64,000 nucleotides of DNA from an uncultured Planctomycetales bacterium (lineage in GTDB: Bacteria; Omnitrophota; Gorgyraeia; Gygaellales; Profunditerraquicolaceae). A model generated the notes under the pieces. It had not been told where the DNA came from, made no database searches, and saw only the letters and a list, made by a program, of their open reading frames with translations. Positions 26,557 to 43,920 of the stretch are shown here, in pieces. The stretch lies in the NCBI GenBank assembly GCA_964603585.1, contig CAZRVK010000007.1:45128-109127 (forward strand), given 5' to 3'. The translations under genes were made by a program, and so were the position numbers. The number at the start of each line of letters is the position of its first letter. Position 1 is the stretch's first letter.

Positions 26557-26600
26557 AGTTTAAAAAATAATGGAGGGGGAATGAGTTATCCCCCTCCATC
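26557..26600 (-). terminator. rho-independent terminator
   Basis: Perfect 11 bp inverted repeat atggaggggga/tccccctccat followed on the minus strand by a T-rich tract; just downstream of the 26625 gene end. Confidence 0.5.
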
Positions 26601-26624: not shown

Positions 26625-26852
26625 TTAGTGCTTAGGGCAATTACACTTTGCGTCACATTTTCCGTCGGCGCAAAGGCACTTTCCCTGACTGCAGCATTTT
26701 CCTTCGCAGGTACATTTTCCTTTTACGCAGCAGGTCCCGTTCACGCAAGGGCATGCCTTTTCTGCACAACAGTCATTTGCTGCGGCCAAGGGATATCCAT
26801 AACCGAAAAGCATGGCCGTAATAATAGGTAATATGAAAAGATATTTTTTCAT
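26625..26852 (-). CDS. secreted metallothionein-like cysteine-rich peptide
   Basis: 75 aa; signal peptide then ~50 aa with 19 Cys in CC/CxC/CPC arrangements. Confidence 0.5.
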   Translation of the reverse strand: MKKYLFILPIITAMLFGYGYPLAAANDCCAEKACPCVNGTCCVKGKCTCEGKCCSQGKCLCADGKCDAKCNCPKH

Positions 26853-26900
26853 AGTATCTCCTTAATATAATTTGTTATTCACTGATTAATCGCGTGCTTA

Positions 26901-27212
26901 TCAGGCCCGCGGAGGATGGAAAATATCAATTACAGACAGATAAAGGTAGGCAATGTTGGAGTTTTGCGCAAGATACCCTGTAAAACCAAGCGTAGGAAAA
27001 GTTTTGTTTTTTCTTAAAAATGCCTGGGGGATCTGATGGCTACAAATACAAACCGAAGGAGTATTATGGCATTTAGTACTCTGATGGCAGTCATTGGCAG
27101 CACAGCAGCCACAACTTTGGTGGACATCAGAATAAGCTGATTCCCCCATAAATCCGCCTGCCAAAATTATGATCATTACCCAAAATAAGCATCTTAGGAA
27201 CGTTTTATTCAT
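26901..27212 (-). CDS. small membrane-anchored Cys/His-rich protein (paralog family member 4)
   Basis: 103 aa; N-terminal hydrophobic anchor then HQSCGCCAANDCHQSTKCHNTPSVCICSHQ; preceded by the conserved upstream element. Confidence 0.45.
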   Translation of the reverse strand: MNKTFLRCLFWVMIIILAGGFMGESAYSDVHQSCGCCAANDCHQSTKCHNTPSVCICSHQIPQAFLRKNKTFPTLGFTGYLAQNSNIAYLYLSVIDIFHPPRA

Positions 27213-27221
27213 GACTATACT

Positions 27222-27283
27222 AGTTCCGGTAGTCCCGGGAACACATTACTTAATTATCCGCAGTTAAATTCAGGTTCCTCGAA
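27222..27283 (-). promoter_or_regulatory. conserved promoter/operator element copy 1 (upstream of 26901-27212)
   Basis: Minus-strand CTGCGGATAATTAAGTAATGTGTTCCCGGGAC: palindrome TTAAnnnnnnGGATAATTAAG over a GATAAT -10, plus GTTCCCGGAAC palindrome; ~80% identical to copies 2 and 3. Confidence 0.6.
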
Positions 27284-27463
27284 TCATGAGTCGGATATCG
27301 CACTACAAGACACACATCCCTCGAAGCAACCAGTATTATCACTAGTAGGGTCACTAACGCTAGCGCCGGTTTTACACACTACAAGCACCATCTCCTGTTT
27401 ATCTTGTCTTACTAATACAATGAAATGCGGCTGTTTCCACATTTTCTTTATTTTATAGCCCAT
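27284..27463 (-). CDS. small Cys-containing peptide P1 (59 aa, not in ORF track)
   Basis: MGYKIKKMWKQPHFIVLVRQDKQEMVLVVCKTGASVSDPTSDNTGCFEGCVSCSAISDS; RBS GGGGAG; own TTGACA-16-TAGAAT promoter at ~27500-27535; paralog of P2/P3. Confidence 0.5.
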   Translation of the reverse strand: MGYKIKKMWKQPHFIVLVRQDKQEMVLVVCKTGASVSDPTSDNTGCFEGCVSCSAISDS

Positions 27464-27570
27464 AATCTCCCCAATCCCTTTTATTAAATTCTACTCTTTC
27501 CCCATGTTTTGTCAACCGTAGACTAGTTTCAGAAGTAATAGGGAAAAATGACTGCCGCCTTTCCTCTAGT

Positions 27571-27759
27571 CTATGACGATCCCCAAAGAGAACAAGCAGA
27601 ACAAGTACGGTCCTCCGTTGCACAACCTATATAGAACTCAGCAGGCCCTGTATAGACTGCCTCCTGCTTACAATTTACCAACACTCTTTCTTCCCTAATC
27701 CCACTTATTAAACCAATGAAATGCGGCTGTTTCCATTGCTTCTTCATTCTATAGCCCAT
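27571..27759 (-). CDS. small Cys-containing peptide P2 (62 aa; ORF-track N-terminal extension judged spurious)
   Basis: MGYRMKKQWKQPHFIGLISGIREERVLVNCKQEAVYTGPAEFYIGCATEDRTCSACSLWGSS; start set at ATG 27759 preceded by GGGGAG RBS; 5' coding region ~85% nt identical to P1. Confidence 0.5.
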   Translation of the reverse strand: MGYRMKKQWKQPHFIGLISGIREERVLVNCKQEAVYTGPAEFYIGCATEDRTCSACSLWGSS

Positions 27760-27789
27760 GATCTCCCCAATTCCTATCGTATCTTGCAT

Positions 27790-27856
27790 TTCCGGAGACA
27801 CATTGCTTAATTATCCGCAATTAAGTATCGTGCCCCCGAATCCACGACCTAATCTC
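27790..27856 (-). promoter_or_regulatory. conserved promoter/operator element copy 2 (upstream of P2)
   Basis: Minus-strand CACGATACTTAATTGCGGATAATTAAGCAATGTGTCTCCGGAAATG; same architecture as copies 1 and 3. Confidence 0.6.
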
Positions 27857-28279
27857 TTATTTAAAGATAATTATCAACGTACCACTCGTAATTAAGGCAA
27901 TCGCCAACCACTGATAAACGCCTAACCGCTCCCCTAAGAATAGAAGTGATAAAACCACCGCAAATACTAAACTTAGTTTGTCAATTGGAGCAACTAACGA
28001 TGCTGGTCCAGCTTGTAAAGCTCGAAAATAGCATAACCAGGAAAGCCCAGTTGCAATTCCTGAAAGAATCAAGAAAATCAAACTATGCTTATCAATCAGC
28101 AATGGATTCTTCCATTCCCTGCGAATAAAAATAATCGCGCCTAAAAAAACGATAATAACGATAGTCCTAATAAATGTGGCCAGATTGGATGAAATATTTT
28201 TTACTCCGATCTTTGCCAATACAGCCGTTATACCTGCAAAAAAGGCCGATAAGATAGCGAATATTTTCCAGTCAATCAT
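27857..28279 (-). CDS. small EamA/DMT-family permease (single EamA domain, 4 TM)
   Basis: 140 aa, four TM helices, EamA-like pattern (AILSAFFAGITAVLAK...LIITSGTLIIIF). Confidence 0.6.
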   Translation of the reverse strand: MIDWKIFAILSAFFAGITAVLAKIGVKNISSNLATFIRTIVIIVFLGAIIFIRREWKNPLLIDKHSLIFLILSGIATGLSWLCYFRALQAGPASLVAPIDKLSLVFAVVLSLLFLGERLGVYQWLAIALITSGTLIIIFK

Positions 28280-28373
28280 TAAGTTCCTTTATCCTTATCT
28301 GATGCAATAGGGGAAAATGCCTGTCCCAAAAGTGACTGTCACCTTCACCCCTTACTGCAATACAAAAACCCAG

Positions 28374-28580
28374 CTAACTTAAGGCAATCGTAGAACACTC
28401 ACCATTACAGAGAGGCACATTCCCAACACAGCTCAAATCAGACATAAATGCACCACCAAACACCTCATTTAGTCCCTTACATATACTTAAAACTTTTTCC
28501 TGGAGGTGATCTCCTCGCGTTAACACAATCAAAATTGGCTTTGCCCACTTCATTTTGAGTTTTGTTCTATTTCTTGTCAT
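28374..28580 (-). CDS. small Cys-containing peptide P3 (68 aa)
   Basis: MTRNRTKLKMKWAKPILIVLTRGDHLQEKVLSICKGLNEVFGGAFMSDLSCVGNVPLCNGECSTIALS; perfect RBS AAGGAGGT 9 nt upstream of ATG 28580. Confidence 0.5.
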   Translation of the reverse strand: MTRNRTKLKMKWAKPILIVLTRGDHLQEKVLSICKGLNEVFGGAFMSDLSCVGNVPLCNGECSTIALS

Positions 28581-28605
28581 TAAACTATTTACCTCCTTAA
28601 AGCCA

Positions 28606-28670
28606 TAGTTCCGGGAACACATTACGTAATTATCCATAAATTAAGTATCGTGTACCCTGAATAATCCTAC
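28606..28670 (-). promoter_or_regulatory. conserved promoter/operator element copy 3 (upstream of P3-EamA operon)
   Basis: Minus-strand CACGATACTTAATTTATGGATAATTACGTAATGTGTTCCCGGAACTA; GATAAT -10 inside a TTAATT/AATTAA dyad plus GTTCCCGGAAC palindrome. Confidence 0.6.
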
Positions 28671-28821: not shown

Positions 28822-28848
28822 AAACGGAGAGGCAGGGATATTAACCCT
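28822..28848. repeat. att-type direct repeat: partial copy of tRNA-Ser(GGA) 3' end (island left boundary)
   Basis: aacggagaggcagggat (17/17) plus 7/10 further matches to 43894-43920, which is the 3' part of the intact tRNA. Confidence 0.65.
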
Positions 28849-28870
28849 TTTATGCTCAAAATGCCCCTTT

Positions 28871-28893
28871 CACCACCAATTTCACCACCAAAA
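28871..28893. repeat. tandem CACCACCAAT(T)T motifs (arm-type/iteron-like), also present at 43728-43750
   Basis: caccaccaatttcaccaccaa here and caccaccaattcaccaccaa near the other island end. Confidence 0.5.
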
Positions 28894-28917
28894 ATCACGT
28901 TTACTGTAATAATCATA

Positions 28918-30018
28918 TCATTGTATCCTAGTTAGCTCAAGCACTTTTGCTAATCCTTCGCTTGTGCTATGGCTGTAATAACTAAGCACCACATCCGGAT
29001 CTTTATGCCCCGAGATTACCATTGCATCAACAATAGGCACATTATTTTTTCCACATTCAGTCAAAAATCTATGTCGAAAATATGAAGACGTAATCCTTAT
29101 TCCAACAATCTCTTCACTTATCTCTTTCAAATATTCACAAATTCTTCGTTGATTAAACTTGCTACCTTTCTTAGTAACAAATAAATATGGGACTTTATAC
29201 TTATTCGCATTTTGATACGCCTCCCTGATTAGATTCTCTAACTCAAAATCCAGCTTCTTCAAAGGCGCACTTTCATCGGTTTTTGTTGTTTCTGCCCTTA
29301 TATTTAAACCAACGGGTTTTATCCCATCCCAAACGACATCTTTTCTCTCTATAAGCGTAGTTTCTTCAACCCTTCTTCCTGTCCGCTGCATGAAATAAAT
29401 TGGTCTAAAATAATCAATCTTATCTTTCTTAATAAACATTAACAATTCACTTATTTTGCTATTTGAAATTTCAGGAAACTGCTTTTTGTTAGGTTTTGGC
29501 TTTTTTATTTCTTTAAGTCTTTCTATAATATCTTTGCTACAATAACCTAATCTATACATTCGCCCCATAATAGCTTTAACATCAATTAATTCTGACCTTA
29601 ACCCCTTTATTCGCCCTAATTCATTACAATAATAATTCTTATATTCTTCAAAAAACGCCAAACTTATTTGATTCGGATTCTTAACGTAGGGAAATTTTAA
29701 ATCCCTAAAATCGCCAAAAACTCGCCAAAAAGTCTTTTTATACCCCAACCAAGTTTTTCTCGGCTTTTGTTCTGCATTTAACCCTTGACTTATACCTTCC
29801 CAGACTTTAGAAAAATCAACTGTGAGGCGTAACTTCTCAGCTTCGGGCGTTTCTAATTCTTTTCGTTTCTGAGTTATTATTTCTGCACGAATGTTGTAAG
29901 CTTCCTGCATAGACCCAGCTTTGACAGTTTCCCAAAACCTCTGCCCCCTATTAGTCAAACGAAAATTGATCTGATAATTTCCCGCTTCGGTCTCTTTTAC
30001 CCCAACATATCTCTTCAT
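28918..30018 (-). CDS. tyrosine recombinase / phage-type integrase
   Basis: 366 aa; C-terminal catalytic region with R...HxxR (SSYFRHRF) and terminal Tyr (VLSYYSH); adjacent to att repeat. Confidence 0.85.
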   Translation of the reverse strand: MKRYVGVKETEAGNYQINFRLTNRGQRFWETVKAGSMQEAYNIRAEIITQKRKELETPEAEKLRLTVDFSKVWEGISQGLNAEQKPRKTWLGYKKTFWRVFGDFRDLKFPYVKNPNQISLAFFEEYKNYYCNELGRIKGLRSELIDVKAIMGRMYRLGYCSKDIIERLKEIKKPKPNKKQFPEISNSKISELLMFIKKDKIDYFRPIYFMQRTGRRVEETTLIERKDVVWDGIKPVGLNIRAETTKTDESAPLKKLDFELENLIREAYQNANKYKVPYLFVTKKGSKFNQRRICEYLKEISEEIVGIRITSSYFRHRFLTECGKNNVPIVDAMVISGHKDPDVVLSYYSHSTSEGLAKVLELTRIQ

Positions 30019-30191
30019 TAGCCCCTCTGTTTAAACCACTTCCAAAAATCTTCCTTAGTCGCCAAAAGTCTTTTACCGTGCTTTATCAAAGGACAACCAC
30101 TTCTTTCTTTCCATTTTTCACTATGGATAGTATTTGGTGCAATATGTAATATCTTTGCAACATCTTCAACTGTCAGAATTTCATTTTCCAT
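30018..30191 (-). CDS. excisionase-family HTH DNA-binding protein
   Basis: MENEILTVEDVAKILHIAPNTIH...: HTH_17/excisionase-like; start chosen at MENEIL. Confidence 0.5.
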   Translation of the reverse strand: MENEILTVEDVAKILHIAPNTIHSEKWKERSGCPLIKHGKRLLATKEDFWKWFKQRG

Positions 30192-30723
30192 GATTAACCT
30201 CCTTATTATGCCTAAGCCAATACCCACTCTTTCGCCTTTCTTTTCCATCCTTACTGCCAATAGGTCTACCTAACTTCTTGCCTTGTCGCTTTGCACGCTC
30301 CAATCCAGCCTTAGTGCGTTCGACTATTCTTTTACGCTCCTGTTGCGCTACCCAAGAAAATATGGCAAGTAATAATTGCCCCAATCCATCATCTCTGGTA
30401 TCTAACCACGATTCTTGGAGCGATTTCAATGCTACCCCATTTCGTTTAAGCCGCTCAAGATAACCTAGAGTGTTAGAAATCCCCTCTCTCGAAAGTCTAT
30501 CAAGCGCCCAAACAAGCACTAAATCAAACTTCCTTTGATCGGCATCGTCAAACATCTTCAGAAAATTTATCCTATCTCCGCTACCTCCGGAAGCCAAATC
30601 AACATATACTTCAACAATTTCTCCCCCTAACGCCTTTGCATATTCTCTAAGAGGTTGTAGTTGATTTTTAGGATCCTGGCTTTCATCATTCTTGCTTACC
30701 CGAGCATAAATTGCTATTCTCAC
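30181..30723 (-). CDS. serine recombinase (resolvase/invertase family)
   Basis: N-terminal catalytic domain IYARVS (Ser nucleophile) ...LDRLSR...; C-terminal HTH. Confidence 0.85.
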   Translation of the reverse strand: MRIAIYARVSKNDESQDPKNQLQPLREYAKALGGEIVEVYVDLASGGSGDRINFLKMFDDADQRKFDLVLVWALDRLSREGISNTLGYLERLKRNGVALKSLQESWLDTRDDGLGQLLLAIFSWVAQQERKRIVERTKAGLERAKRQGKKLGRPIGSKDGKERRKSGYWLRHNKEVNHGK

Positions 30724-30762
30724 TTCTCTCCTCCTCTCTATTTTAATCGCGAACCTTTGAAT

Positions 30763-30875
30763 ATGTGAATTTATTCACCTTTTACCTTAAGTATATCTAC
30801 ATCCGTGAATTTGTCAAGAATTATTTGTGAATTTATTCACCTTGACTTTATTCACGTTATAATTTATACTGATTT
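30763..30875. promoter_or_regulatory. divergent regulatory region with iterated GTGAATTTATTCAC operators and TTGACT-16-TATACT promoter
   Basis: Palindrome GTGAATTTATTCAC at 30765-30778 and 30827-30840, half-sites at 30805 and 30851; -35 30843-30848, -10 30865-30870, ATG at 30880 (near-leaderless). Confidence 0.6.
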
Positions 30876-30879
30876 CATT

Positions 30880-31440
30880 ATGAAAAACTTGCACGAAACA
30901 TTAGGGAGTTTAATCCGAAGGCGGCGTAAAGAATTAAAAATGACTGCTGAGGAATTAGCTATTAAAGTTCAAGTAGATCGAACTTATTTATCTAAAATGG
31001 AAAGGCACAATTTTATTCCTTCACTAGAAGTTCTTATGAGATTAAATGCGGTTTTGGATTTAAATACTTTCATTATAAATGATCCGGCAATAAGAAACAA
31101 AATAAAGTTTCCGCTCACCCCTGAGGTTTTTGAGAAAGTTTATTTTGAACATACTAAATCTCAAAACGAAGTGGCAGGTCTATTCTGGGAACAAATTGTT
31201 GCTAAAAAAGAGACTTCTGATAAATTATTTATATTAGATATACTGTCTACACTATGCGGGCCTGAACAGCTTAAGAATAAATCTTACCTCAAAGCTAGGG
31301 AGAAAGACTTTCTTAACTACATTAGAAATTGGCGAAAAGCTTACGCTGAGTTTATTAAGAAATACCAAGAAGCCGAAATACAACTTATCCTCAAAGACGG
31401 CATTCTAAAATACCCCCTCCCCTACTCAAACAACAAATAA
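30880..31440 (+). CDS. XRE-family HTH transcriptional regulator (repressor-like)
   Basis: N-terminal HTH_XRE (LIRRRRKELKMTAEELAIKVQVDRTYLSKMERHN); start moved to ATG 30880 downstream of promoter. Confidence 0.7.
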   Translation: MKNLHETLGSLIRRRRKELKMTAEELAIKVQVDRTYLSKMERHNFIPSLEVLMRLNAVLDLNTFIINDPAIRNKIKFPLTPEVFEKVYFEHTKSQNEVAGLFWEQIVAKKETSDKLFILDILSTLCGPEQLKNKSYLKAREKDFLNYIRNWRKAYAEFIKKYQEAEIQLILKDGILKYPLPYSNNK

Positions 31441-31448
31441 TCGCGCGC

Positions 31449-31991
31449 TTATTTAATGGACTCTGGTATGCGGACGGTACTTAAAATCTGATGACGTATC
31501 TGTTTTTCTGCTTCCTCAAGATAAATCATCGCTCCTTTTTCTGTAAAACTGTAAGTTTTTTTGCATTTTGGGCAGTACAGCTCATGATAAACTCCGGGAG
31601 CTCCAACAGCTTGCTGCAAATGAAGAGAAGTTTTATGAACTGGGCACAAAAAGTAAATATGCGGATCAACAGGATTATTTTGACGATCCTTCCAATATGT
31701 TATTTCGCATCGCCATTGCAGTCTCTGGAATTTACCATGCATTACCCTGGGCTGTTTTGGTTTTAATTGGAAGAAAAGTAAAATAATAAGGCTAATTGCT
31801 AAAATGAGTAAGGTCAGTAGTAGTAGAATAATCTTTAAGTAAAAATTAATGGGCAACTTTTGCAATGGTGGAAGAAAGAGTGGAAGGAGTTCTGACCAAA
31901 TACCAAGAAGAAGAAAACTAAAGAAAGATAATATTGCGGTTACTAGAACAGGCACAATATTATCTTGTATGGATTTTAGGATGTTTGTCAT
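31449..31991 (-). CDS. hypothetical membrane protein with C-terminal zinc ribbon
   Basis: 2 TM helices then CPVH...CPKC Zn-ribbon; island cargo. Confidence 0.35.
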   Translation of the reverse strand: MTNILKSIQDNIVPVLVTAILSFFSFLLLGIWSELLPLFLPPLQKLPINFYLKIILLLLTLLILAISLIILLFFQLKPKQPRVMHGKFQRLQWRCEITYWKDRQNNPVDPHIYFLCPVHKTSLHLQQAVGAPGVYHELYCPKCKKTYSFTEKGAMIYLEEAEKQIRHQILSTVRIPESIK

Positions 31992-32239
31992 TAATCTTAT
32001 TTAATCACCAATAATGTAGGAAATCAATAAAAATGTATTTTGCATAACACTTCTTAAAATAATTCGTAGAAACTGTATGTGAGAGGAGGATTTCTTTAAG
32101 GCTAAATAAATAATAACTCAAGGAAAATACGGTCGTTTATTTAAAATATAATTTTATACTTAATAATAGACTAAAATTGGTGGGGAGGGTTATTTGCTTC
32201 CTTCTGATCAACTAAGCATTAACAGGTTTTATTATTAAC

Positions 32240-33082
32240 TTACCCATCAAAATATAACATAACTCTTCTGGTAAGACTTTCTACTTCACTATCCGGTAAA
32301 TGAACTTGATCACAGATCTCATTCATAGCAGCAAAATGTTTTCTGAAAAATAATTCCGTGGTAGAATCATTTGCTAAATACAAGGAACCATTTGGTTTTT
32401 TCTGATAGTTACAAAGAGAAAAGCCTATAAACATAAGCCCCGTATGTAATTTTGATAAAAAGAAGAACCAATAAGGAAACCGATTATCGAGAAGAGATAC
32501 CCAATGTCTCACTTCTTTAATCTCGCAGAGCTCTCTATAGTCATTCTCATAACCGGATATTCCAATATCTACGCGTTCAAAATACTTTCTCGCAATACTA
32601 GGTTTAAGTAATAAATCTAAACTATTTAATATCCCCCTGGTAGACTGCTTTTCCACATCTTCTCTTGAAGAAATAAGAGTTAAAAAATCTATTCCTACAT
32701 TATCTTCAGCTAAAGTAATATCTTCTCCGGAAAACTTAAAAGTATCTGCAATAAGTTTATCTCTTTCTATTTCTCTTAAGATTTTACCCATTAGAACGTT
32801 GGTTCTATACAATCTAATGACTAATGGATGTATATCTTGCAAGAAATCTGGTCTTAGATCTTGAGGTAATGAAGTATTTGTAAGAATAACCATCAAGACT
32901 TTCAAATCTTCATAATATGCCTTATCCTGATCTCCATCTTTTATTTTCATAAATCCAGTTCTCTTCTTATTTTCTATTTTGATTCTTTGGGCTTCCTTAC
33001 AAACCAAATCCATAGCTTCCAACTGGTTACTAAATCTGGCACTTGTACAAAAATCTTTAAGATTATTGGTTTTCGCAATCAT
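32240..33082 (-). CDS. hypothetical protein (island cargo)
   Basis: 280 aa, no recognisable motif; C-terminal hydrophobic segment. Confidence 0.3.
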   Translation of the reverse strand: MIAKTNNLKDFCTSARFSNQLEAMDLVCKEAQRIKIENKKRTGFMKIKDGDQDKAYYEDLKVLMVILTNTSLPQDLRPDFLQDIHPLVIRLYRTNVLMGKILREIERDKLIADTFKFSGEDITLAEDNVGIDFLTLISSREDVEKQSTRGILNSLDLLLKPSIARKYFERVDIGISGYENDYRELCEIKEVRHWVSLLDNRFPYWFFFLSKLHTGLMFIGFSLCNYQKKPNGSLYLANDSTTELFFRKHFAAMNEICDQVHLPDSEVESLTRRVMLYFDG

Positions 33083-33098
33083 AACATATACTTAAAAC

Positions 33099-33407
33099 TT
33101 AGTTAACAGTTTTGGACTTCTTTTTAAATAACCAACAATAATACGCAAAAACGATTACTCCTCCCAAAAACGGGTAGAAAGCGCTTTTCTCTAAGTCTAT
33201 AGCTCCATGAGCAAACCAATCTGAAAAAGATGCTAGAATTATATAAAATATAGTTGCAATAATAATAGAGATAAACCTCTGTTTATTACTCTGTTTTTTG
33301 GTAACAAAACAAAGGATTGAGTTTGTAAGCGCAGCAAAAGCAAATGCGACTATACCACATCCTGTTACAAAACCAAAAAAACTAATAATCGGATAATTAT
33401 TGTCCAC
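33099..33407 (-). CDS. small 3-TM membrane protein (island cargo)
   Basis: 102 aa, three hydrophobic helices. Confidence 0.3.
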   Translation of the reverse strand: MDNNYPIISFFGFVTGCGIVAFAFAALTNSILCFVTKKQSNKQRFISIIIATIFYIILASFSDWFAHGAIDLEKSAFYPFLGGVIVFAYYCWLFKKKSKTVN

Positions 33408-33612
33408 TTTATTCCCTCTCTTCCATTTTGCCCCTATAAAACAAAAGGGGGCGCATATTCATTACCGGCAACCGTTAAGTAAAACCGATAAGACTGCATT
33501 TCCCCCTCCCCTTTCGGGGAGCGGTGCAGCTTACCTTACTTAACGGTTAGAGGCCTTAAATCCTCTTTAAGGTATAGCTATAACCAAATTGTCTAAATCT
33601 TGTTACTAAATA

Positions 33613-34356
33613 TTACACCGACTTTCGTAATTCATTAAGTTTCACCCATTCACCTGGGGCTCGTTCATAAGTCCAAGACTGCCATCCATTCATAGGTCCC
33701 TTAACTATGGCTTGTGCGGCAAGAGAAGGCGAAGTAAATATTTTACCCTGTAATCGACTAGCCTCCGCACTATCACGCGCAAATGCTATAGAGCCATCAT
33801 TTCTAACGTGGGCAACATAAAGTTTGCTCTTATACCTCATTTTTATATGGAATCTATTAGTCACAAAAGGTGCCAACGTAGACTTCTTACCATCAGATTT
33901 TATTATCTTTTTATCATGAAGTCTAGAATTACATTTCTTATCTACTCCACAAAATAACTCCTCCAGCTCAATACTCAATGCCTTAGATATATCTCGCCTA
34001 AATACTCTACGTAAATCATCGGCCTTTCCAAATTTACCTTTTTGTAAATTTCCTTTTGGTTTAACAATACGCAACACCAAAGCCTCTAACTCCCGCAGGT
34101 GTTGATCTCCAATCGTAAGATATATGCTAAAACTATCCCAGGTTGAAGCATGACGATCTTTCAGATGATGTCGTAAACGAGATCGTAAATTTGAAGCCAA
34201 TCCCACATAATATAGTTTATTTCTACGATAAAGCGAATAGACACCATACCTACCTTTGACATACTTGCGAATTATATTCTGGTATTTCTCTAAAGCCGTT
34301 CTCGAAATATTTTCTAAATACTGACACACTAAATTACCGGCCTTATTCTTATTCAT
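33613..34356 (-). CDS. GIY-YIG nuclease-domain protein (type I R-M associated)
   Basis: LYYVGLASNLRSRLRHH matches GIY-YIG (YYVG..N...R...H); located immediately 3' of hsdS. Confidence 0.55.
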   Translation of the reverse strand: MNKNKAGNLVCQYLENISRTALEKYQNIIRKYVKGRYGVYSLYRRNKLYYVGLASNLRSRLRHHLKDRHASTWDSFSIYLTIGDQHLRELEALVLRIVKPKGNLQKGKFGKADDLRRVFRRDISKALSIELEELFCGVDKKCNSRLHDKKIIKSDGKKSTLAPFVTNRFHIKMRYKSKLYVAHVRNDGSIAFARDSAEASRLQGKIFTSPSLAAQAIVKGPMNGWQSWTYERAPGEWVKLNELRKSV

Positions 34357-34374
34357 ACTATCTCTCTTCCTTTT

Positions 34375-35790
34375 CTATTTCTCCAAAATAACATTTAATT
34401 TCTTCAATTCCGCTTCAATCCAACTTTGAGCGTCTTCTTCACTCTTCTCAATCGCCATTTCAACACCGCGCGTGGCAATATCAAGAAGTCCTTTTGACAA
34501 TGCTTTTGCGTTATACATCTCTGTAATTTTCTTTTTAATATCGCTCTGAATCCCTGCTGGTAAATCCGGCAGGACGATTCGTTTAAATTCGTCGTCACCG
34601 ATAGCGGTCAAGATAGTGCCGGAGCAACCCTTTTTAAGCTGTAACTGTCCAGCCGGCGACTTGAGCAAAACAAGCAATGTTTCCGAATTTATCTTTTCAG
34701 AATGAACGACAAAAAAACCTGTAGAACATAAAGCATTATCCAAATCATCATTTATCAAAGCAACACTTGAAAGAGCCCCTTCAATAGTCGAAACAATGAC
34801 ATCTCCGGCATTAACCTTACGTCTCGCCCGAGTAGGTAATTCTTTGCCTTGTGCTTCGATAAATCCGTTAATGTTTCCATTCGCCGAGATATTAGCAAGC
34901 TCGATATAGCGGTAAGTTACTTCATCCTTTGGCTGGAAGTTCTTGTCTTTTACCCTGACAATTTCATCCAATGGTTTATAACCTTTTTTGTATTGCTTGA
35001 TGTGACCCAGAACCTCATCATATTTAGGCTGAAAGTATTCCGCATCGATACGTTCGCTCGTCTGCGTTTCGGAGAAATTCTTGACGAAAGAAAGGCGATG
35101 CATCGGCTTCCAGTTTAAAAGGCCGAGCTCAGAAAGAAGGGCTTGCTCGGCTTCCCTATAAATATTGACAGATTTCTCTTTTAACAACTCTGCCTGTAAA
35201 ACAATTTTGTGTGTTACCGCTTTTATTTTTTCGCCCAGCAATACAACTTTAATATTCTTGATGTCTTCCAATTCGAGCTTACCTTGCCCGGAAAGCATAA
35301 TAATTCGCTTGATTTGCCCATTACCATATTTTGAAAGTAAATATGCAAGCAGAAAACCCGGCGTAGTTATGTCTTTTTTCAGCTTAACACCCGTTACGTT
35401 CTGACTAAAATTATATCGTGTGTATTTTTCTGGAAGCATAGCTACATCACCGATATAAGCCCCAATTTTTGTAAAAACAATATCGCCCGGCGTTAATTCT
35501 GTTTTTCGATTAAGGACTTGTGTTTTTTCATCGAGAAAAACAGTAGAAGAGAAATCTATTTGCGGATCTTTAATTTCGGAGGTACGGATTAGCGGTATAC
35601 CCTGCTCTCTATAGAAATCAGGAGATAAATCAAAAATTCCTTTTTTAATAAAAAGGCTGTATGTCAAAAATGCTTCCGTTTGATGCGAATTTAACGTCTT
35701 CTCCAACTGCAGAAAATCTGGCGAATAAAATTCAGCATCTATCCTTAAATTTCCGTGTAACCTTGATTTATTAATGATCGAATATTGCAT
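34375..35790 (-). CDS. hsdS: Type I restriction-modification specificity subunit HsdS
   Basis: 471 aa, two target-recognition domains separated and followed by conserved coiled-coil repeats; immediately downstream of and overlapping the MTase gene. Confidence 0.7.
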   Translation of the reverse strand: MQYSIINKSRLHGNLRIDAEFYSPDFLQLEKTLNSHQTEAFLTYSLFIKKGIFDLSPDFYREQGIPLIRTSEIKDPQIDFSSTVFLDEKTQVLNRKTELTPGDIVFTKIGAYIGDVAMLPEKYTRYNFSQNVTGVKLKKDITTPGFLLAYLLSKYGNGQIKRIIMLSGQGKLELEDIKNIKVVLLGEKIKAVTHKIVLQAELLKEKSVNIYREAEQALLSELGLLNWKPMHRLSFVKNFSETQTSERIDAEYFQPKYDEVLGHIKQYKKGYKPLDEIVRVKDKNFQPKDEVTYRYIELANISANGNINGFIEAQGKELPTRARRKVNAGDVIVSTIEGALSSVALINDDLDNALCSTGFFVVHSEKINSETLLVLLKSPAGQLQLKKGCSGTILTAIGDDEFKRIVLPDLPAGIQSDIKKKITEMYNAKALSKGLLDIATRGVEMAIEKSEEDAQSWIEAELKKLNVILEK

Positions 35791-35792
35791 AG

Positions 35793-37844
35793 TTATTTCC
35801 AGAAACTTAATTTCTCTTTTTGCGCCCAGTCAATAAACGCCTCAGCAATGCCATCGGGAAGCTCGCCTTTATGATTGTGCAAGTCATGATCAACGATTAA
35901 ATGGCCGTATTTATCCAACTTAGGCTTACCGTCGCCATTCTTAACGTAAACGTAATCTCCAGAATTATCCTTGCCCGACTTTTCGGAAACGCCAAAGAAT
36001 ATCGAGTAGTCGTCTTTTTTAGGACAGCTCTTGTCATCGCATTTTTGCAGGAATAAAACACTGGTCTTTGTACCGGTGTGAGGCTTAAAAGTATTGCAAT
36101 GCAAACCCACAACCGCCAAGATACGAGCCTTACCAGCGATAAATTCACGGATGTCTTTATCCGATGTGTTATTAAACCTGCCTTGAGGTAAAACTATGGC
36201 TAATCGTCCGCCGGGCTTGAGAAAGTCAAGATTGCGTTCAATAAAAAGAATATCTCGCCCAACTTTTGGTTTAGGTTTTTTCTTTTCATTAAAACCGAGA
36301 TCATATTTATGAATGATATTTGACTCTTTAATATCTCCAGCAAAGGGCGGATTGGCCATTAGAATATCAAAGAGAAATTCCTTGTTTGAATTACGATCTG
36401 CCCTAAGTGCTTCAAGACGTCTAAAACCACTGCTGTAGGTATCTCTCCAGTCAGGATTGTTTACTTTCTCATTCCAGCGATCGTAATCAAGCGTGTTGAG
36501 ATGCAAAACATTTGTTTCACCGTCACCGGCGATTAAGTTTAGCGTGCGGGCAACACGAACAACTTTTTCGTCAAAATCTATTCCGAATACTTTTAGCACA
36601 TCGTCTTTTTCATCCGCTGAAACCTCGGTGTTTTCAAAGAGATGCCCAGTAAGCTGAAAGATAGTATGCACGGTGAATCCGCATGACCCCGAGGCAGTGT
36701 CAATCATGTATTCGCCTCGTTTAGGATTAAGCATCTTGACGCACATATCAATCACATGCCGAGGCGTGAAATATTGACCTTTCTCACCTTTAGAGGACTT
36801 GCTAACCAAATATTCAAAGGCTTCGTCAATAACTTGCAAATTGGAATTAAAGAGTTTTACATCCTGAAGGCTGGAAACACAGATCGATAAATGCGAAGGC
36901 GATAAATCAATCTTGCTCTGCTCTGGAAATACTCCGGGCCACTTTTTCTTGGCTTCATCAAACAACCTCTGAATCTTTCCCTTTAACTGTGCGTCGGTCT
37001 GGCCGGTATTTCTAAACTCTAAAATACGAAAGTCACTGTCATCAATGTCTTTTAAGACTGCTTTTAGTTTCTCAAAGTCACCAATTTCGTCCACTTTCAA
37101 TTTTCTCTTAACCGTTCGGTCAATAATAACTTTATCATCTTTACTTTTTGTCTCGTCGTATAACTTCGTAAAGATGAGCTTAAATACTTCCTCGAATACA
37201 TCCACGCCCGCATTGGCGAGGACTTCATCTTCCATGTCCTCAATCTTGGTCTTCAAAGTTATTCTATCGTTTAAGAGAGCATCTTTGACAATCAAATCCC
37301 TCCACGTAAAACGTTCTTTCAAAATATCTTCAAGTGTCTGATCTGCTTTCGGGATATCAGTAATATCCTCAAAGAAATTCGGGTCTTTGCGGTTATAGTG
37401 GGAAATCTGTCCACCATTTGACCAAACGCCAATCGGAGCCCCGGTCGCATTACAATATGACTTAAGCTGTTCCTTGCCGTCTTTGAGTCTTGGCTTTTTA
37501 ACCTCAACGATAATATATTCAACCATCGGTCTATCTTTATCAAAAACAATTATGTCGGCGGATTTTGTTTCCCGGCCAAATTGAACAGGGTGCTCAAAGC
37601 GTATCCGTTTTTTTGGATAGCCGTAATCATTAATGAGCTTTACGGCATAAAGCTGACGAACGACTTCTTCCGGCTTTAGCTGGACTTCTTTTTCCCGAAT
37701 GACACAGTCAACGTGAGGCTTGCCTTTCTGAATCTTGATTCTTGACTCAAGGGCATTGATGTCTTTTGCCGCAAATAGAGAAAGGTTATAACTCGAATCT
37801 CTAAGAATAGAGGCGAGCGTTATTTTATCTTTACCGTTTGCCAT
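35793..37844 (-). CDS. hsdM: N6-adenine DNA methyltransferase HsdM fused to an N-terminal HsdR_N-like PD-(D/E)xK nuclease domain
   Basis: C-terminal MTase motifs (NPPF at LMANPPFAGD, SAM-binding DTASGSCGF); N-terminal ~230 aa with D...EVK core (ADIIVFDKDRPMVEYIIVEVKKP) typical of HsdR N-terminal nuclease domain. Confidence 0.75.
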   Translation of the reverse strand: MANGKDKITLASILRDSSYNLSLFAAKDINALESRIKIQKGKPHVDCVIREKEVQLKPEEVVRQLYAVKLINDYGYPKKRIRFEHPVQFGRETKSADIIVFDKDRPMVEYIIVEVKKPRLKDGKEQLKSYCNATGAPIGVWSNGGQISHYNRKDPNFFEDITDIPKADQTLEDILKERFTWRDLIVKDALLNDRITLKTKIEDMEDEVLANAGVDVFEEVFKLIFTKLYDETKSKDDKVIIDRTVKRKLKVDEIGDFEKLKAVLKDIDDSDFRILEFRNTGQTDAQLKGKIQRLFDEAKKKWPGVFPEQSKIDLSPSHLSICVSSLQDVKLFNSNLQVIDEAFEYLVSKSSKGEKGQYFTPRHVIDMCVKMLNPKRGEYMIDTASGSCGFTVHTIFQLTGHLFENTEVSADEKDDVLKVFGIDFDEKVVRVARTLNLIAGDGETNVLHLNTLDYDRWNEKVNNPDWRDTYSSGFRRLEALRADRNSNKEFLFDILMANPPFAGDIKESNIIHKYDLGFNEKKKPKPKVGRDILFIERNLDFLKPGGRLAIVLPQGRFNNTSDKDIREFIAGKARILAVVGLHCNTFKPHTGTKTSVLFLQKCDDKSCPKKDDYSIFFGVSEKSGKDNSGDYVYVKNGDGKPKLDKYGHLIVDHDLHNHKGELPDGIAEAFIDWAQKEKLSFWK

Positions 37845-37916
37845 GTTTAATTTTCTCCTTCAAAAATTTCTCAATATAATACTACTGGATTTTGTCAGAT
37901 TTACACCTTTAACCAG

Positions 37917-38087
37917 TTATATTTTATCTCTCTTCGGCTTATAAAGCAACTGCTTTAAGTCTTTTGCAGAAAACTCATCCGCAGATTCCAAGCCACACTC
38001 ATATCTCAGAAATTGATACAGCCTAATTATTGCCTTAGTCTCTTCAATAAGCTTCCTATGCCTTATATTCCATAGCCAGGGGAACAT
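37917..38087 (-). CDS. small conserved protein (paralog of 51041-51202)
   Basis: KLIEETKAIIRLYQFLRYECGLESADEFSAKDLKQLL ~60% identical to the phage-region copy; start set at MFPWLW. Confidence 0.4.
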   Translation of the reverse strand: MFPWLWNIRHRKLIEETKAIIRLYQFLRYECGLESADEFSAKDLKQLLYKPKRDKI

Positions 38088-38129
38088 ATTACCACCTCCT
38101 GATATAATAGACGCAAGAAGTAGCAAAAT

Positions 38130-38867
38130 CTAACAAATTTTCTTCATCTTTTCCCTTTTTCCTTCAATCCATTTCAATAAGTCATTTTCTTTCATCTTGT
38201 ACCGGTTACCTACCTTGAAAAATGGCAGTTCTCCAAGAAGCATCTTTTCTCTAACAGAGCCATAGCTTGCCCCTAGATACTTAGCCGCTTCTCCCAAGCT
38301 TAAAACTTTATCTTTTGTAGTAATACTTGTAAACTTTCCAGAAAGTTCATTCTTAAGCTCTTTAAATATATTTTCAGTCTTTTTCACTGCTTCTTTATGG
38401 TAATAAAAATATTCTTTCATCTCTTTCACGGCTTCATGCAGAGAACGGTGCAAAGAAACAATAGCATGTTCCTTAAAGAATCTATCAAGCCTATCGATAT
38501 CTCTTTTCAACTGCCTTATCTCCCTAAAGAATGTTTCCTTATCTATAACATTTCTGGGTTCCTCTACTAGCTTATTAGATATATCACCAAGCTTCTTTTG
38601 CAATGTCTTCTTTACCCTTAATCTTTCTTTTAAGCCTTCTATCTCTCTACCGACTTTTTCAACCTTCAAATTAACAAGATTAGGGTCGTAATTGATATCC
38701 TTATTTAGTTTTTCAATCTCTTCGCATATCTTCATACTATCCTGTATATCTTCAAGCAATTCTTGGAATCTTTCAGCCTCTTTTATTGCACGAAAACCTC
38801 TTTTGTTTCTAATTCCATTCTGTATCCAATGGACATAAGCTTTTCCATCATCACCCAAAGAAATCAT
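38130..38867 (-). CDS. coiled-coil protein with C-terminal excisionase/MerR-type HTH
   Basis: Long heptad-rich middle; C-terminal LSLGEAAKYLGASYGSVREKMLLGELPFFKVGNRYKM HTH_17-like. Confidence 0.45.
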   Translation of the reverse strand: MISLGDDGKAYVHWIQNGIRNKRGFRAIKEAERFQELLEDIQDSMKICEEIEKLNKDINYDPNLVNLKVEKVGREIEGLKERLRVKKTLQKKLGDISNKLVEEPRNVIDKETFFREIRQLKRDIDRLDRFFKEHAIVSLHRSLHEAVKEMKEYFYYHKEAVKKTENIFKELKNELSGKFTSITTKDKVLSLGEAAKYLGASYGSVREKMLLGELPFFKVGNRYKMKENDLLKWIEGKREKMKKIC

Positions 38868-38917
38868 TTAATCTTCTCCTTATGCGAATGCAAAAAAACA
38901 ACTAAAGGTGAATTAAT

Positions 38918-39856
38918 TCAGAAAACCAAATCGGATAAACTCTTTAGTCTCAACTTTTTCTCTCTAAGACTCTGAGCCATATTTTCGAGCCCTAGATGTT
39001 CAAACTGAACTCTGATATCTGTCAATTCCAGTAATAAATTAGCTGCCATAAGTAAAGATAAAATAATTCCCTTTTTATCTTCCTTTGGGTTAATGTCCAT
39101 TTGATCTGGCTTATCTTTAAATAGGCTTGAACCTATATGGGTATTATGGGTAGACATTGATAGATACCGATAACTTGCATTCATATCTTCTTTATTACTA
39201 CAATAATTAAGTATGGCTTCGGCACTTGGGTATTCAGGCTTAAACCAAAATGCCTTTGGTTTAGTTCTTTTTAGAAAATTATTTATATAAATCTCGATTT
39301 CTTTTCTATCCTTGGAAGACAACCTAATTTTAAGATCCTCGAGCTGCTGCTGTTGGAATCCTCTCAGATCATCCTTAGTTTCTGAAGAATGGATTAAATC
39401 ATTCAAATAATCATTCGCATAATATCGAAATGCCCAGTATTCGCTATTCTCTCTTGTTATCACTATATAAAACATTAGGCATTCCATTAAACTCCTTAAA
39501 ATAACGGCAGCTGTCGAAGACCATCCATTTTCGCAAAGTGATAGTACACTTCTATATAATTCGATTGCTCTAGTAGCAATACGATATAAGGCAGAGCGGG
39601 TTAGAATATTTTTATTCTTATCTTTACTAGGAGGATTGTATTTTTGAAATGAAATTTTATTTGCTTCTATTGCGAAATCGAGAACGTCATTATAAAATTC
39701 AAGAAATGGCTTAAATCTTGGGGAGTTTAAATTTGTAAAAGTGGCAGTTCCCTTAATAAAACCTCGCTTATAACCTTCTTTAAATCCACGGTGAATCCCT
39801 CGTTTATATATAATTCCCCAAACTAATTTTATTCTTTCAAAGAATATTATTCCCAT
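38918..39856 (-). CDS. hypothetical protein (island cargo)
   Basis: 312 aa, no recognisable motif. Confidence 0.3.
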   Translation of the reverse strand: MGIIFFERIKLVWGIIYKRGIHRGFKEGYKRGFIKGTATFTNLNSPRFKPFLEFYNDVLDFAIEANKISFQKYNPPSKDKNKNILTRSALYRIATRAIELYRSVLSLCENGWSSTAAVILRSLMECLMFYIVITRENSEYWAFRYYANDYLNDLIHSSETKDDLRGFQQQQLEDLKIRLSSKDRKEIEIYINNFLKRTKPKAFWFKPEYPSAEAILNYCSNKEDMNASYRYLSMSTHNTHIGSSLFKDKPDQMDINPKEDKKGIILSLLMAANLLLELTDIRVQFEHLGLENMAQSLREKKLRLKSLSDLVF

Positions 39857-39985
39857 TAAGTTTAACTTTAAGAATATAAAAAGGGGCTAATAACCAAATA
39901 ATCCTCCCTCCCTATTATTGATGACTTCTATTCTTAACAATCAATATCAAATAATCGTTCGTTTGTTTGGTAGAGAAATTCATCT

Positions 39986-41905
39986 TTATAATCCCCTATC
40001 CTTAATATATTTTATACCCGAAACGGGTTTAATAGGTGCATCCTGTAAGAATCTAGTTATTACCCTATGCAGCACTTTATCAACCCTTCCAGTAAAAGCT
40101 TGAGGACCTATTCTTCTTTCACAATAAGTCATAAAAATGGCTTCTTTAGCTCTACTCAATGAAACAAACAGCAACCTTCTTTCATCTCCTATTTCATCTC
40201 CTTCGTAACGTCCAGGAATAACTTGATCTTCAACACCTACTATTATAACAACTGTGGCTGTTAAACCCTTGGCTTTGTGCATAGTTAGAATATTAATTTT
40301 ATCATCTTCCATTTCCTGTTCTATTTCTTCGTCTGAAGATGATAAGTTTCTTAATAAACTAGGCAAATCTCCTGAATCAGTTTCGACGCAAATTTTCATT
40401 AGATATTCAACTTCTTTTTCGATATTTATAGGATAAATCTTACTGAGATTAAGTATCTTTTTAAGCAATTCTTTATTATCTTTTGCATCTTTGAATTCAT
40501 CATCCAATTGTTCAATCAAACGTAAATTTTCATTAATTTCTGATTTTAGACTTTCGCTAAAGCCACCCGTATCTTCTTCTTTAATCTTTATTAGGCATTC
40601 AGTAAAAGTCACCCCATTATCAAGACATTGTTTAAAGATTTTTGCTAGGGTTTCTACCCCGACATTATTATTTCTTAATTGTAAAATCGTTCTCCAAGCA
40701 AGATGATCAAATTGATTATGAACTAATTTAAGATGCGCTAACAATAAAAGACCCGTTTTTGCTTCTAGAGGATTATCATTTTCAATATTAACGTGAACTG
40801 GAAGACCCAATAATTCTAATTTATCTTTTATTGGACTGGACATTACTCCATGAAAATCGGACCGCAACAAAATTAAAATTTCTCCTGCTTCAACCTGACC
40901 ACCCTTAATTAACGAAAAGCATATTTTAGCTATAGCTTCGGCTTCTGGATATTGGTTATCAAATCTTAGTAATTCTACATTACCCTTTGGAGCTCCAGGA
41001 GGAATTTTCATTCCCTTCCCCCGTCTAAGTCTTTTGGTATCTAAATCAGCTACAAACTCGCTTATCTTTAATATTTCTTCGCCACACCTCATACAAGTTT
41101 CGAGCTCAAGCTCTTCAGTTGGAATATAGTCTATCGAGAATCGTCTTATCCCATCAGGGTGAGCAAATCTAAATCCATAAATACTTTGATCATCGTCTCC
41201 AGCAACAAAAATTGACGCATCGAGCTTTTCGGATAGTGTTTTGATAACAGACAAGTCGCATCTATTCAAATCTTGATATTCATCAACAAGAATATGAGTA
41301 AATTTCTTCGCAAGCTTAAAATCTCCTGTTTGTTCTACTGCCCTTTTAAATTGATAGACTAATTCCGATCTCAAGGTATATCCAAACTTTTCTCTGTGTT
41401 CTCTCCAAGCTCCGAGAAATACTGGGTCTGAAAATCTCTTTTCCCAATCAGCGTCATCTGCTTTTAAAGTTTGCCAATCCGCAGATAAAAAAGCAAATTT
41501 AGTCTGAATTTCTTTTATTGGACAAGACAATGTCTTTTTTAAATCTTCCTGGATTATATTCCGCTCTTCCCAATCACTGGCTATTCTTAAAGGTTTGGGG
41601 AGCTTTTCGATAATCTTTGCATTATGTAAAATCTGACTTAAGGCGAACGAATGTAACGTTACTACATGCGGCAAAAGTTTAGCTTTCCCTAAAAGAATTC
41701 CTATTCTTTTTCGTAATTCAGCTGCGGCGGCTCGGGTAAAAGTTAATACTAGAATGTTATCGGGCTCAATCTTAGCTTCTTCAATCAAATACTTTACTCG
41801 ATATGTTATTGTTCTAGTTTTTCCTGTTCCTGGGCCAGCTAAGAGCCGGATAAACTTACTATCCGATTCACAAGCTTTTTGTTGTTCGGGCAATAATTCC
41901 CCCAT
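39986..41905 (-). CDS. UvrD/Rep/PcrA-family SF1 DNA helicase
   Basis: Walker A AGPGTGKT, motif II DEYQD, motifs III-VI in order. Confidence 0.8.
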   Translation of the reverse strand: MGELLPEQQKACESDSKFIRLLAGPGTGKTRTITYRVKYLIEEAKIEPDNILVLTFTRAAAAELRKRIGILLGKAKLLPHVVTLHSFALSQILHNAKIIEKLPKPLRIASDWEERNIIQEDLKKTLSCPIKEIQTKFAFLSADWQTLKADDADWEKRFSDPVFLGAWREHREKFGYTLRSELVYQFKRAVEQTGDFKLAKKFTHILVDEYQDLNRCDLSVIKTLSEKLDASIFVAGDDDQSIYGFRFAHPDGIRRFSIDYIPTEELELETCMRCGEEILKISEFVADLDTKRLRRGKGMKIPPGAPKGNVELLRFDNQYPEAEAIAKICFSLIKGGQVEAGEILILLRSDFHGVMSSPIKDKLELLGLPVHVNIENDNPLEAKTGLLLLAHLKLVHNQFDHLAWRTILQLRNNNVGVETLAKIFKQCLDNGVTFTECLIKIKEEDTGGFSESLKSEINENLRLIEQLDDEFKDAKDNKELLKKILNLSKIYPINIEKEVEYLMKICVETDSGDLPSLLRNLSSSDEEIEQEMEDDKINILTMHKAKGLTATVVIIVGVEDQVIPGRYEGDEIGDERRLLFVSLSRAKEAIFMTYCERRIGPQAFTGRVDKVLHRVITRFLQDAPIKPVSGIKYIKDRGL

Positions 41906-42116
41906 TTTTTCTCCTTTTACGCTATCATCATTTTAAATATAGCCTTTATCCACATGTCATATTAGCAAGGCTCAATCATAATTTACATTATACAACTTCT
42001 ATTGCAAAATAATATAGATTTAGCAAGAAAAGTTCGACATTTGCGTACTGAACAATGCTCGTGACATGTTAACCTGTTTTTGCCACTTAATAATTTTTCT
42101 ACTCGAAAATGTGGAA

Positions 42117-42368: not shown

Positions 42369-42369
42369 G

Positions 42370-42750: not shown

Positions 42751-42831
42751 TTTGCTTAAAACCGTATAATTTGGTTTAGTTTAGTCTACCAATAGCCTCT
42801 TTTATATTAGTCGTATTATCCATAACTCAAG

Positions 42832-43893: not shown

Positions 43894-43920
43894 AACGGAG
43901 AGGCAGGGATTCGAACCCTG
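43894..43920. repeat. att-type direct repeat (within tRNA-Ser 3' end; island right boundary)
   Basis: Matches 28822-28848. Confidence 0.65.

Follow-up and report, generated by a model that had tools for sequence, protein, structure and literature searches.

Cysteine peptides beside REPIN-like palindromes in an Omnitrophota contig are likely precursors of an uncharacterised radical-SAM/SPASM class

The DNA analysed in this study (the window) is a stretch of 64,000 nucleotides from contig CAZRVK010000007.1 (positions 45,128 to 109,127) of an uncultured bacterium of the Omnitrophota (assembly GCA_964603585.1). Within it are the genes for three small cysteine-containing peptides, P1, P2 and P3, together with a gene for an EamA-type membrane protein, a gene pair named orf103 and orf75, and three copies of a short palindromic element, E1 to E3. 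All are located on the minus strand. In the direction of transcription, the genes are ordered P3, EamA, P2, P1, orf103 and orf75, followed by an intrinsic terminator and a class-I glutamine amidotransferase gene. The features of the locus are listed in Table 1. It is likely, taking the peptides and the palindromes together, that P1 to P3 are paralogous precursors of a widespread but uncharacterised radical S-adenosylmethionine (rSAM)/SPASM class of RiPPs (peptides synthesized ribosomally and then modified post-translationally), that they are encoded remotely from their maturation enzymes, and that E1 to E3 are mobile palindromes.

Table 1. Features of the peptide locus in the direction of transcription.
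Feature	Position	Strand	Description
E3	28609..28662	-	REPIN-like inverted doublet, ~30 nt upstream of P3
P3 precursor peptide	28374..28580	-	68 aa; ORF with AAGGAGG Shine-Dalgarno sequence
Second palindromic repeat GTGACAGTCACTTTTGGGACAGGCATTTTCC	28305..28341	-	Downstream of P3
EamA/DMT membrane protein	27857..28279	-	Single-domain, 140 aa; between P3 and P2; Pfam EamA
E2	27790..27841	-	REPIN-like doublet between EamA and P2
P2 precursor peptide	27571..27759	-	62 aa; ORF with Shine-Dalgarno sequence
P1 sigma-70 promoter	27488..27515	-	Near-consensus TTGACA-16-TAGAAT; promoter scan, consensus match only
P1 precursor peptide	27284..27463	-	59 aa; ORF with Shine-Dalgarno sequence
E1	27233..27284	-	REP copy, left arm degenerate; occupies the P1/orf103 spacer
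orf103	26901..27212	-	103 aa; membrane-anchored, Cys/His-rich; outside the peptide family
orf75	26625..26852	-	75 aa; secreted, Cys-rich (21 Cys plus a signal peptide); paired with orf103
Intrinsic terminator	26569..26600	-	Strong; 12-bp stem and T-run; ends the P3-to-orf75 gene string

The peptide family and its cassette in relatives

Each of the three peptides may be considered in terms of a leader and a core. The P1 leader is MGYKIKKMWKQPHFIVLVRQDKQEMVLVVCK and its core is TGASVSDPTSDNTGCFEGCVSCSAISDS. The P2 leader is MGYRMKKQWKQPHFIGLISGIREERVLVNCK, with a core that ends in GCATEDRTCSACSLWGSS, and the P3 leader ends in KMKWAKPILIVLTRGDHLQEKVLSICK and is followed by the core GLNEVFGGAFMSDLSCVGNVPLCNGECSTIALS. 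When aligned, the N-terminal halves are invariant in W, P, I, L, E, VL and CK, and the C-terminal halves share a C...C-x2-3-C-S tail. Both observations bear out a first-pass annotation of the window, which had proposed a set of paralogous cysteine peptides with a common C-terminal cluster. The similarity of P1 and P2 at their 5' ends, also described there, corresponds to a 72-nt stretch of 85% identity that spans the ribosome binding site and the 5' coding region. All three peptides are encoded by intact open reading frames (ORFs) with a Shine-Dalgarno sequence, each has three core cysteines and a terminal serine, and every residue that is invariant across the wider family is retained.

Scans of P1 to P3, orf103 and orf75 against Pfam and NCBIfam assigned no family. 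For the family to which P1 to P3 belong, the only matches were weak ones with lasso peptides and with a peptide family of rSAM RiPPs, and a profile search of genome contigs with the peptide alignment found no relative. From a profile search of 1.84 billion representatives, 1,524 small proteins were obtained at E<=1e-3, and the 5.8-billion collection contains 1,341 family clusters at 90% identity. Every member found carries either no name or the label "hypothetical".

The consensus of the family leader is KKxWxKPxLIVLVRGxxEExVLxxCK. It is followed by about six variable residues, the dipeptide GP, about six more residues, a C-x~6-C-x2-C cluster, about five residues and the C-terminal Ser. An alignment of 48 members, P1 to P3 among them, shows the residues W, P, E, L, C and K in every sequence. 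The leader motif W-x-x-P-x-h-h-x-L, which the full pattern extends with E-x-h-L-x-x-C-K, is present in 244 of 251 members, and three cysteines follow the CK dipeptide in 223 of the 251. The last residue is Ser in 229/251 and Thr in 17/251, so that 98% end in one or the other. A comparison of P1 with the member P0004 gave 22 identical positions out of 25 in the leader and 8 out of 25 in the core. As judged from sequence, a conserved leader joined to a hypervariable core is the classic pattern of a RiPP precursor. Tandem arrays of 2–11 precursors are common among the family loci; in L019 (5600-13300), a single cassette contains 11 tandem precursor genes with divergent cores. At another locus, L004 (3910-5176), an 81-aa peptide whose leader is of another kind (KPMITRIKLNPEQAVLTCNC) is encoded after a ScmC/HprK-like gene. 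This peptide is not recognised by the hidden Markov model (HMM) of the family and may represent a sister precursor family.

A metagenome scan was made with a narrower alignment (A4), the broad alignment (A3) being too diverse. It identified 80 loci, with rSAM or PqqD genes in 62 of them and in 22 of the 23 loci that are at least 5 kb in length. A median of 150 nt separates the peptide from the nearest maturase gene, and the two share a strand in 60 of 61 loci. The gene order of the cassette is conserved, with an rSAM-HprK/ScmC-like gene, an rSAM/SPASM gene, the precursor or precursors and PqqD, and then an S26-type signal-peptidase-like protease, another rSAM/SPASM gene, an ABC exporter of the MsbA/bacteriocin type and, often, an NTP_transf_5 gene. 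The kinase-like domain matches ScmC, HprK-related kinase B and HPr(Ser) kinase. In L009, a metagenome-assembled genome from the Omnitrophota, a family member is located amid an rSAM-ScmC fusion, two more rSAM genes, PqqD and NTP_transf_5. As a query, the cassette precursor from L009 matches P1 to P3 directly with E-values of 2e-8 to 6e-5.

The link between the window and the cassette was examined with an HMM made from 90 family peptides located <=3 kb from rSAM or PqqD genes, with the window peptides excluded. This model scored P1 at 56.8 bits (E 1e-16), P2 at 46.3 bits (E 2e-13) and P3 at 43.2 bits (E 2e-12), and produced no score for orf103 or orf75. The first-pass annotation had offered a RiPP-precursor family as one of two readings and had proposed that the neighbourhoods of homologues be inspected for radical-SAM enzymes. 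That inspection uncovered the rSAM/SPASM and PqqD cassette, and the RiPP-precursor reading is therefore strongly supported, both by HMM membership and by the linkage of the family to these genes.

The composition of the cassette suggests how such a precursor may be matured. A PqqD-type recognition protein would grip the precursor by its leader of about 30 residues. In the hypervariable core, about 28–33 residues in length with three conserved cysteines (C-x3-8-C-x2-3-C) and the terminal Ser, as many as three rSAM/SPASM enzymes would introduce cross-links, which are most likely thioethers derived from Cys. By analogy, the terminal Ser would probably be O-modified by the HprK/ScmC-like kinase domain. 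The leader would be cleaved by the S26-like peptidase and the product exported by the ABC transporter.

Palindromic elements and neighbouring genes

The first-pass annotation had described elements of about 60 bp with about 80% identity. Three copies do exist; they measure about 52 nt with a mean column identity of 76%. A 21-nt core pattern matches at E1, E2 and E3 only within the 64 kb, where 0.01 matches are expected. In all three copies GGATAATTA is centred in a TTAATT/AATTAAG dyad. The palindrome GTTCCCGGAAC, previously assigned to each element, is exact in E3 but absent from E1 (GTTCCCGGGAC) and E2 (GTCTCCGGAAA). A GATAAT hexamer had been taken for the -10 of a promoter, yet a sigma-70 scan calls none in E1 to E3 and there is no -35 hexamer to pair with a -10 at a spacing of 16–18 nt. 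P1 is not preceded by an element and has its own near-consensus promoter that matches 11 of 12 consensus positions, a consensus match only. Two other promoter types were considered and rejected for the element: a sigma-54 reading, which failed on inspection since the distance from GG to GC exceeds the required one by 4 nt, and a GGAAC reading of the extracytoplasmic function (ECF) type, where the Shine-Dalgarno sequence would lie in the spacer.

The element is built as an imperfect inverted doublet composed of GGGnACACGATACTTAATT, a spacer of 6–7 nt and AATTAAGTAATGTGTnCCCGGAA. Two of the copies fold significantly better than shuffled sequences: the E3 hairpin (-15.7 kcal/mol) has a z-score of -2.5 and the E2 hairpin (-22.1 kcal/mol) a z-score of -3.6. 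In L001, a relative that is 93% identical, the orthologue of E2 forms an almost perfect 23-bp hairpin at -28.1 kcal/mol (z -7.4). E1, which has a degenerate left arm, does not fold any better than its shuffled versions. The hairpin pairing holds in 89% of cells versus 29–44% with slid partners; with four sequences, covariation is uninformative.

The right arm of E3 matches a repetitive extragenic palindromic (REP) sequence of Omnitrophota, TTCCGGGGACACATTACTTAATTATCC. A search with the 25-nt right arm, which covered 185,579 species with a single genome for each, gave nearly identical repeats in exactly three other genomes, all of them Candidatus Omnitrophota and in unrelated contexts. L004 has four copies of the unit GAATTCCGGGGACACAnTACTTAATT in 8 kb, at intergenic sites of various kinds among toxin-antitoxin genes, rSAM genes and others. 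Two of the copies are inverted (5191+, 5951-) and flank a 221-aa gene that resembles a REP-associated tyrosine transposase (RAYT; NCBIfam E 2.4e-15, with 56.7 bits below the cut-off of 80). A REPIN consists of two inverted REPs and is associated with a RAYT (PMC3116915, PMC3337134), and inverted copies around the transposase-like gene of L004 are the hallmark REP-RAYT layout.

E1 to E3 resemble REPs and REPINs in being short extragenic palindromes, in forming inverted doublets, which fold to a hairpin in E2 and E3, and in varying in presence between strains (PMC3116915); the related unit of L004 has inverted copies about a RAYT-like gene. The variation is evident from L001, where E1 and P1 together constitute a presence/absence polymorphism relative to the window. 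The elements differ from typical REPs and REPINs in that there are three copies in 64 kb and no RAYT in the window, in that the L004 transposase scores below its cut-off, and in that several species share almost the same REP sequence. What had been read as a duplicated promoter, operator and leader is better explained as a REP/REPIN-type palindrome. From sequence comparison, E1 to E3 are probably REPIN-like mobile palindromes and not metal or redox operators. In their intergenic spacers, they probably fold as hairpins within a P3-EamA-P2-(P1)-orf103-orf75 transcript that would end at 26600-26569, and they may have been co-opted for a regulatory or mRNA-level role.

A second palindrome, GGGACAGGCATTTTCC (core GGGACAGGCA), follows P3 in the window and P2 in L001 (391-427) with 97% identity. 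It resembles the inverted repeats around a RAYT fragment in L033 (691-715, 1066-1090). RAYT/IS200-like transposase genes or fragments adjoin family peptides or cassettes at L004 (5287-5952), L025 (1672-1933) and L033 (734-847). With RAYT-like genes or fragments beside the peptides in three independent loci, REP/RAYT activity may be linked to the duplication or scattering of precursors.

The remaining genes of the locus are neighbours and not members of the peptide family. The 103-aa protein had been counted as a fourth member. It has no score against the family HMM with filters off, in comparison to 43–57 bits for P1 to P3, and its N-terminus is a signal or transmembrane segment, not a K-K-x-W-K-x-P leader. 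Only two homologue clusters of orf103 are present in the whole collection. Orf75 has no sequence match in Pfam, NCBIfam or the PDB and matches no metallothionein family; the earlier term "metallothionein-like" reflects a resemblance in composition only. Compared with L001, orf75 has 11 synonymous and 5 non-synonymous changes. The two genes are a conserved pair of very narrow distribution and occur together in L091-L093 without the peptides. In one of these, a relative at 55% identity (L092), the pair is preceded by its own promoter, TTGCAG-17-TAGAAT, and by neither element nor peptides. The permease assignment of EamA was confirmed as a single domain of 140 aa (PF00892, 92.9 bits), and a function as an exporter or immunity protein is conjecture.

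Orphan precursors and competing explanations

No maturase had been visible to the first-pass annotation, and the search made here agrees. When every cassette protein was compared with the 64-kb window by tblastn, genes for a maturase, for PqqD, for an S26 peptidase and for a ScmC-like protein were all lacking, and the sole similarity was of the generic ABC ATPase kind, about 18 kb away. The adjacency to rSAM/SPASM and PqqD genes that typifies the family is not seen for P1 to P3. These peptides may accordingly be described as remote "orphan" precursors, for which maturation in trans is presumed, with the cassette at another place in the genome. Maturation in trans is the most likely model, though its probability is moderate.

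A number of observations weigh against the combined interpretation of P1 to P3 as orphan precursors among REPIN-like palindromes. Besides the missing maturation genes, some other family members on long contigs are likewise orphans (L007/L008, L010), and the contigs of the WKQPHF sub-clade, which is nearest to P1 and P2, are all <2.1 kb, too short to reveal cassette linkage. P1 is missing from L001, and the L001 orthologue of P2 is interrupted by an in-frame TGA at 292-294 where codon 38 in the window is GGG. The thioether and Ser-phosphorylation chemistry suggested for the family draws on homology alone. As for the palindromes, all three copies in 64 kb are in one locus, no RAYT is present in the window, and E1 to E3 share one orientation at 22–33 nt before a start codon.

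The L001 stop codon could stem from recoding, from a nonsense mutation that arose recently or from an error in the assembly. Translation of UGA as Gly (genetic code 25) was rejected since TGA terminates both P1 and orf103 in these strains. In all, P2 differs between the window and L001 by 8 synonymous and 4 non-synonymous codon changes, and in the 24 codons downstream of the TGA, 4 of the changes are synonymous and 1 is missense. A second tandem cluster was located in L094 (1-1293; Logan SRR15237811), where three family peptides are encoded with a 117-aa secreted protein. The same sequencing run also yields contigs that are 100% identical to the window. One of the L094 peptides has the MGYKI...WKQP N-terminus of P1 and P2, and three copies of AATAAAGGGGACGTTTCTATTTT punctuate the cluster.

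With these observations in mind, P1 to P3 might be considered as decaying relics that were left behind when the cassette was lost or transferred, and that are now neither matured nor of use. The lack of a maturase within 64 kb, the P2 stop codon and missing P1 of L001, the mobile palindromes throughout the locus and the integrated island adjacent to it would all fit this explanation. It is nonetheless improbable given that the three ORFs are intact with Shine-Dalgarno sequences, that P1 has a strong promoter, and that all of the family-invariant residues are kept. The changes in P2 are 8 synonymous against 3 missense, a bias that continues past the L001 stop (4 against 1), and the second tandem cluster from the same sequencing run points to a dispersed set of precursors that is actively maintained. 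A different proposal, carried over from the first-pass annotation, is that unmodified cysteine peptides, a metallothionein-like protein and an EamA exporter are co-regulated in response to metal or redox stress. The peptides, orf103 and orf75 are indeed rich in Cys or His, and a fusion of MsrA and MsrB is about 3 kb away. Yet the family is consistently partnered by genes for rSAM/SPASM proteins, PqqD, a peptidase and an ABC exporter, and not by metal-handling genes; the cores are hypervariable save for three cysteines, unlike a family of metal-binding proteins; orf75 has no match to a metallothionein family; and the orf103/orf75 pair exists independently of the peptides in L091-L093. Neither was a MerR, ArsR or CsoR regulator, which had been expected as the cognate factor, found near the locus. 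A metal/redox-stress regulon is thus without support and is very improbable.

The E palindromes might also be true operator or promoter sites, perhaps of REP origin, at which a dimeric regulator would control P3, P2 and orf103/orf75 together as a small regulon. Such a role would account for the uniform orientation and spacing of the three copies ahead of start codons, for the GATAAT hexamer at the centre of the dyad, for the restriction of the element to this locus in 64 kb, and for one L004 copy that precedes a gene pair of the Phd/RelE type by about 45 nt. The missing -35 and the failure of the sigma-70 scan argue otherwise, particularly since canonical promoters are used in this lineage at P1 and at orf103 in L092. 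In other species, the element sequence flanks the RAYT-like gene in inverted form, and singlets are located downstream of unrelated genes. In addition, the left half-site of E1 is degenerate, orf103 and orf75 are kept intact in L001 without E1, and no candidate regulator adjoins the locus. Control by an operator is therefore unlikely, though more probable than either decay or a metal response, and the REPIN-like explanation is preferred.

Related systems and genomic surroundings

A close resemblance to the cassette of the family is provided by SynChlorMet (TIGR04248-TIGR04251). Both contain rSAM/SPASM enzymes, a PqqD homologue and a ScmC/HprK-like P-loop protein, and the ScmC, ScmD, ScmE and ScmF models are among the best NCBIfam matches of the cassette proteins in relatives. 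In contrast, the scores fall far short of the equivalog cut-offs (ScmC 34.5/125, ScmD 23.1/100, ScmE 94.5/400, ScmF 90.8/400). The cassettes of the family have three rSAM genes while SynChlorMet has two, their ScmC-like domain is mostly fused to an rSAM, and they add an S26-like peptidase, an ABC exporter and NTP_transf_5. Because the scores are far below the curated cut-offs, the cassette is best regarded, at the level of sequence, as a Scm-like system and not as the Scm system. The TIGRFAM description reportedly gives the Scm precursor as not identified. A literature search on SynChlorMet, the Scm genes, the leader sequence, and HPr kinase together with SPASM found nothing relevant.

Sactipeptides and ranthipeptides also have cores with cysteines, a strand motif of the K-P-x-L-x-x-L type in the leader, and recognition by a RiPP precursor recognition element (RRE) or PqqD. 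The models of their maturases StsB, PapB and AlbA match the cassette rSAMs over the full length, but at 75–86 bits compared to cut-offs of 340–850. The family further differs in that three different rSAMs appear to act on each precursor, and in the invariant Cys-Lys of the leader and invariant final Ser of the core.

The features at the C-terminus have a parallel among lasso peptides. The lasso precursor has a strictly conserved Ser at its C-terminus, which is phosphorylated by HPr-kinase-type enzymes of the cluster before a nucleotidyltransferase-like enzyme acts on the product (PMC9266682). The phosphorylated lasso peptides paeninodin and pseudomycoidin (PadeK/ThcoK/PsmK, PsmN) share with the family an HPr-kinase-like enzyme, a gene of the nucleotidyltransferase family and the conserved Ser. 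An analogous C-terminal modification is suggested by the 98% conservation of a hydroxyl residue at the C-terminus taken with the kinase-like domain and NTP_transf_5. The family cassettes contain neither a lasso cyclase nor a B-protease and have radical-SAM enzymes instead.

With respect to organization, the prochlorosins are a dispersed precursor library in which many ProcA genes are served by one ProcM. P1 to P3 and their family are similar in that multiple paralogous precursors have a conserved leader and a hypervariable core, with some encoded apart from the enzyme. The modifying enzyme is a LanM in the prochlorosins and an rSAM here, and processing in trans is presumed in the present case.

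More broadly, it may be tentatively proposed that P1 to P3 are dispersed members of a hypervariable precursor library of an undescribed RiPP class. Each peptide would be modified by three rSAM/SPASM enzymes, its C-terminal Ser would be decorated by the HprK/ScmC-like kinase and the nucleotidyltransferase, and the class would represent the long-missing type of SynChlorMet-like substrate, with REP/RAYT activity perhaps aiding its scattering. The main interest is the family itself, a large and uncurated set of precursors for a Scm-like cassette with three rSAMs and a kinase, with remote copies in an Omnitrophota genome. A family of >1,300 clusters that has no Pfam or NCBIfam model is now assigned to a conserved multi-rSAM cassette that ranges over Omnitrophota, Chloroflexi-like and other uncultured anaerobes. 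The scheme that results is testable and comprises RRE binding, three rSAM steps, modification of the C-terminal Ser, S26 cleavage and ABC export. Remote precursors such as P1 to P3 escape genome mining that is confined to the neighbourhoods of maturases, and what looks like a "shared operator" in a small genome can turn out to be a REP-type palindrome that is mobile.

An Rfam scan of the region from 26.4 to 29.0 kb produced no meaningful match. Upstream of P3, a tyrosine integrase (28918-30018) is part of an island of about 15 kb integrated at tRNA-Ser(GGA). The island (~28840-43893) is bounded by a 17-nt direct repeat, AACGGAGAGGCAGGGAT (28823-28839, 43894-43910), and from these boundaries the peptide locus is core DNA that adjoins the island but is outside it. 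In addition to the integrase, the island encodes an HTH_17 excisionase-like gene, a resolvase, a type I/IIG restriction-modification system, GIY-YIG/RAMA, DUF5677, a UvrD helicase and a Rep-like protein. The window contains five tRNA-Ser genes with four different anticodons (43896-46492, 4556-4646, 50840-50914). Three of the five are on the minus strand inside 2.6 kb at 43896-46492, and a seryl-tRNA synthetase gene (47252-48529) is near this group.

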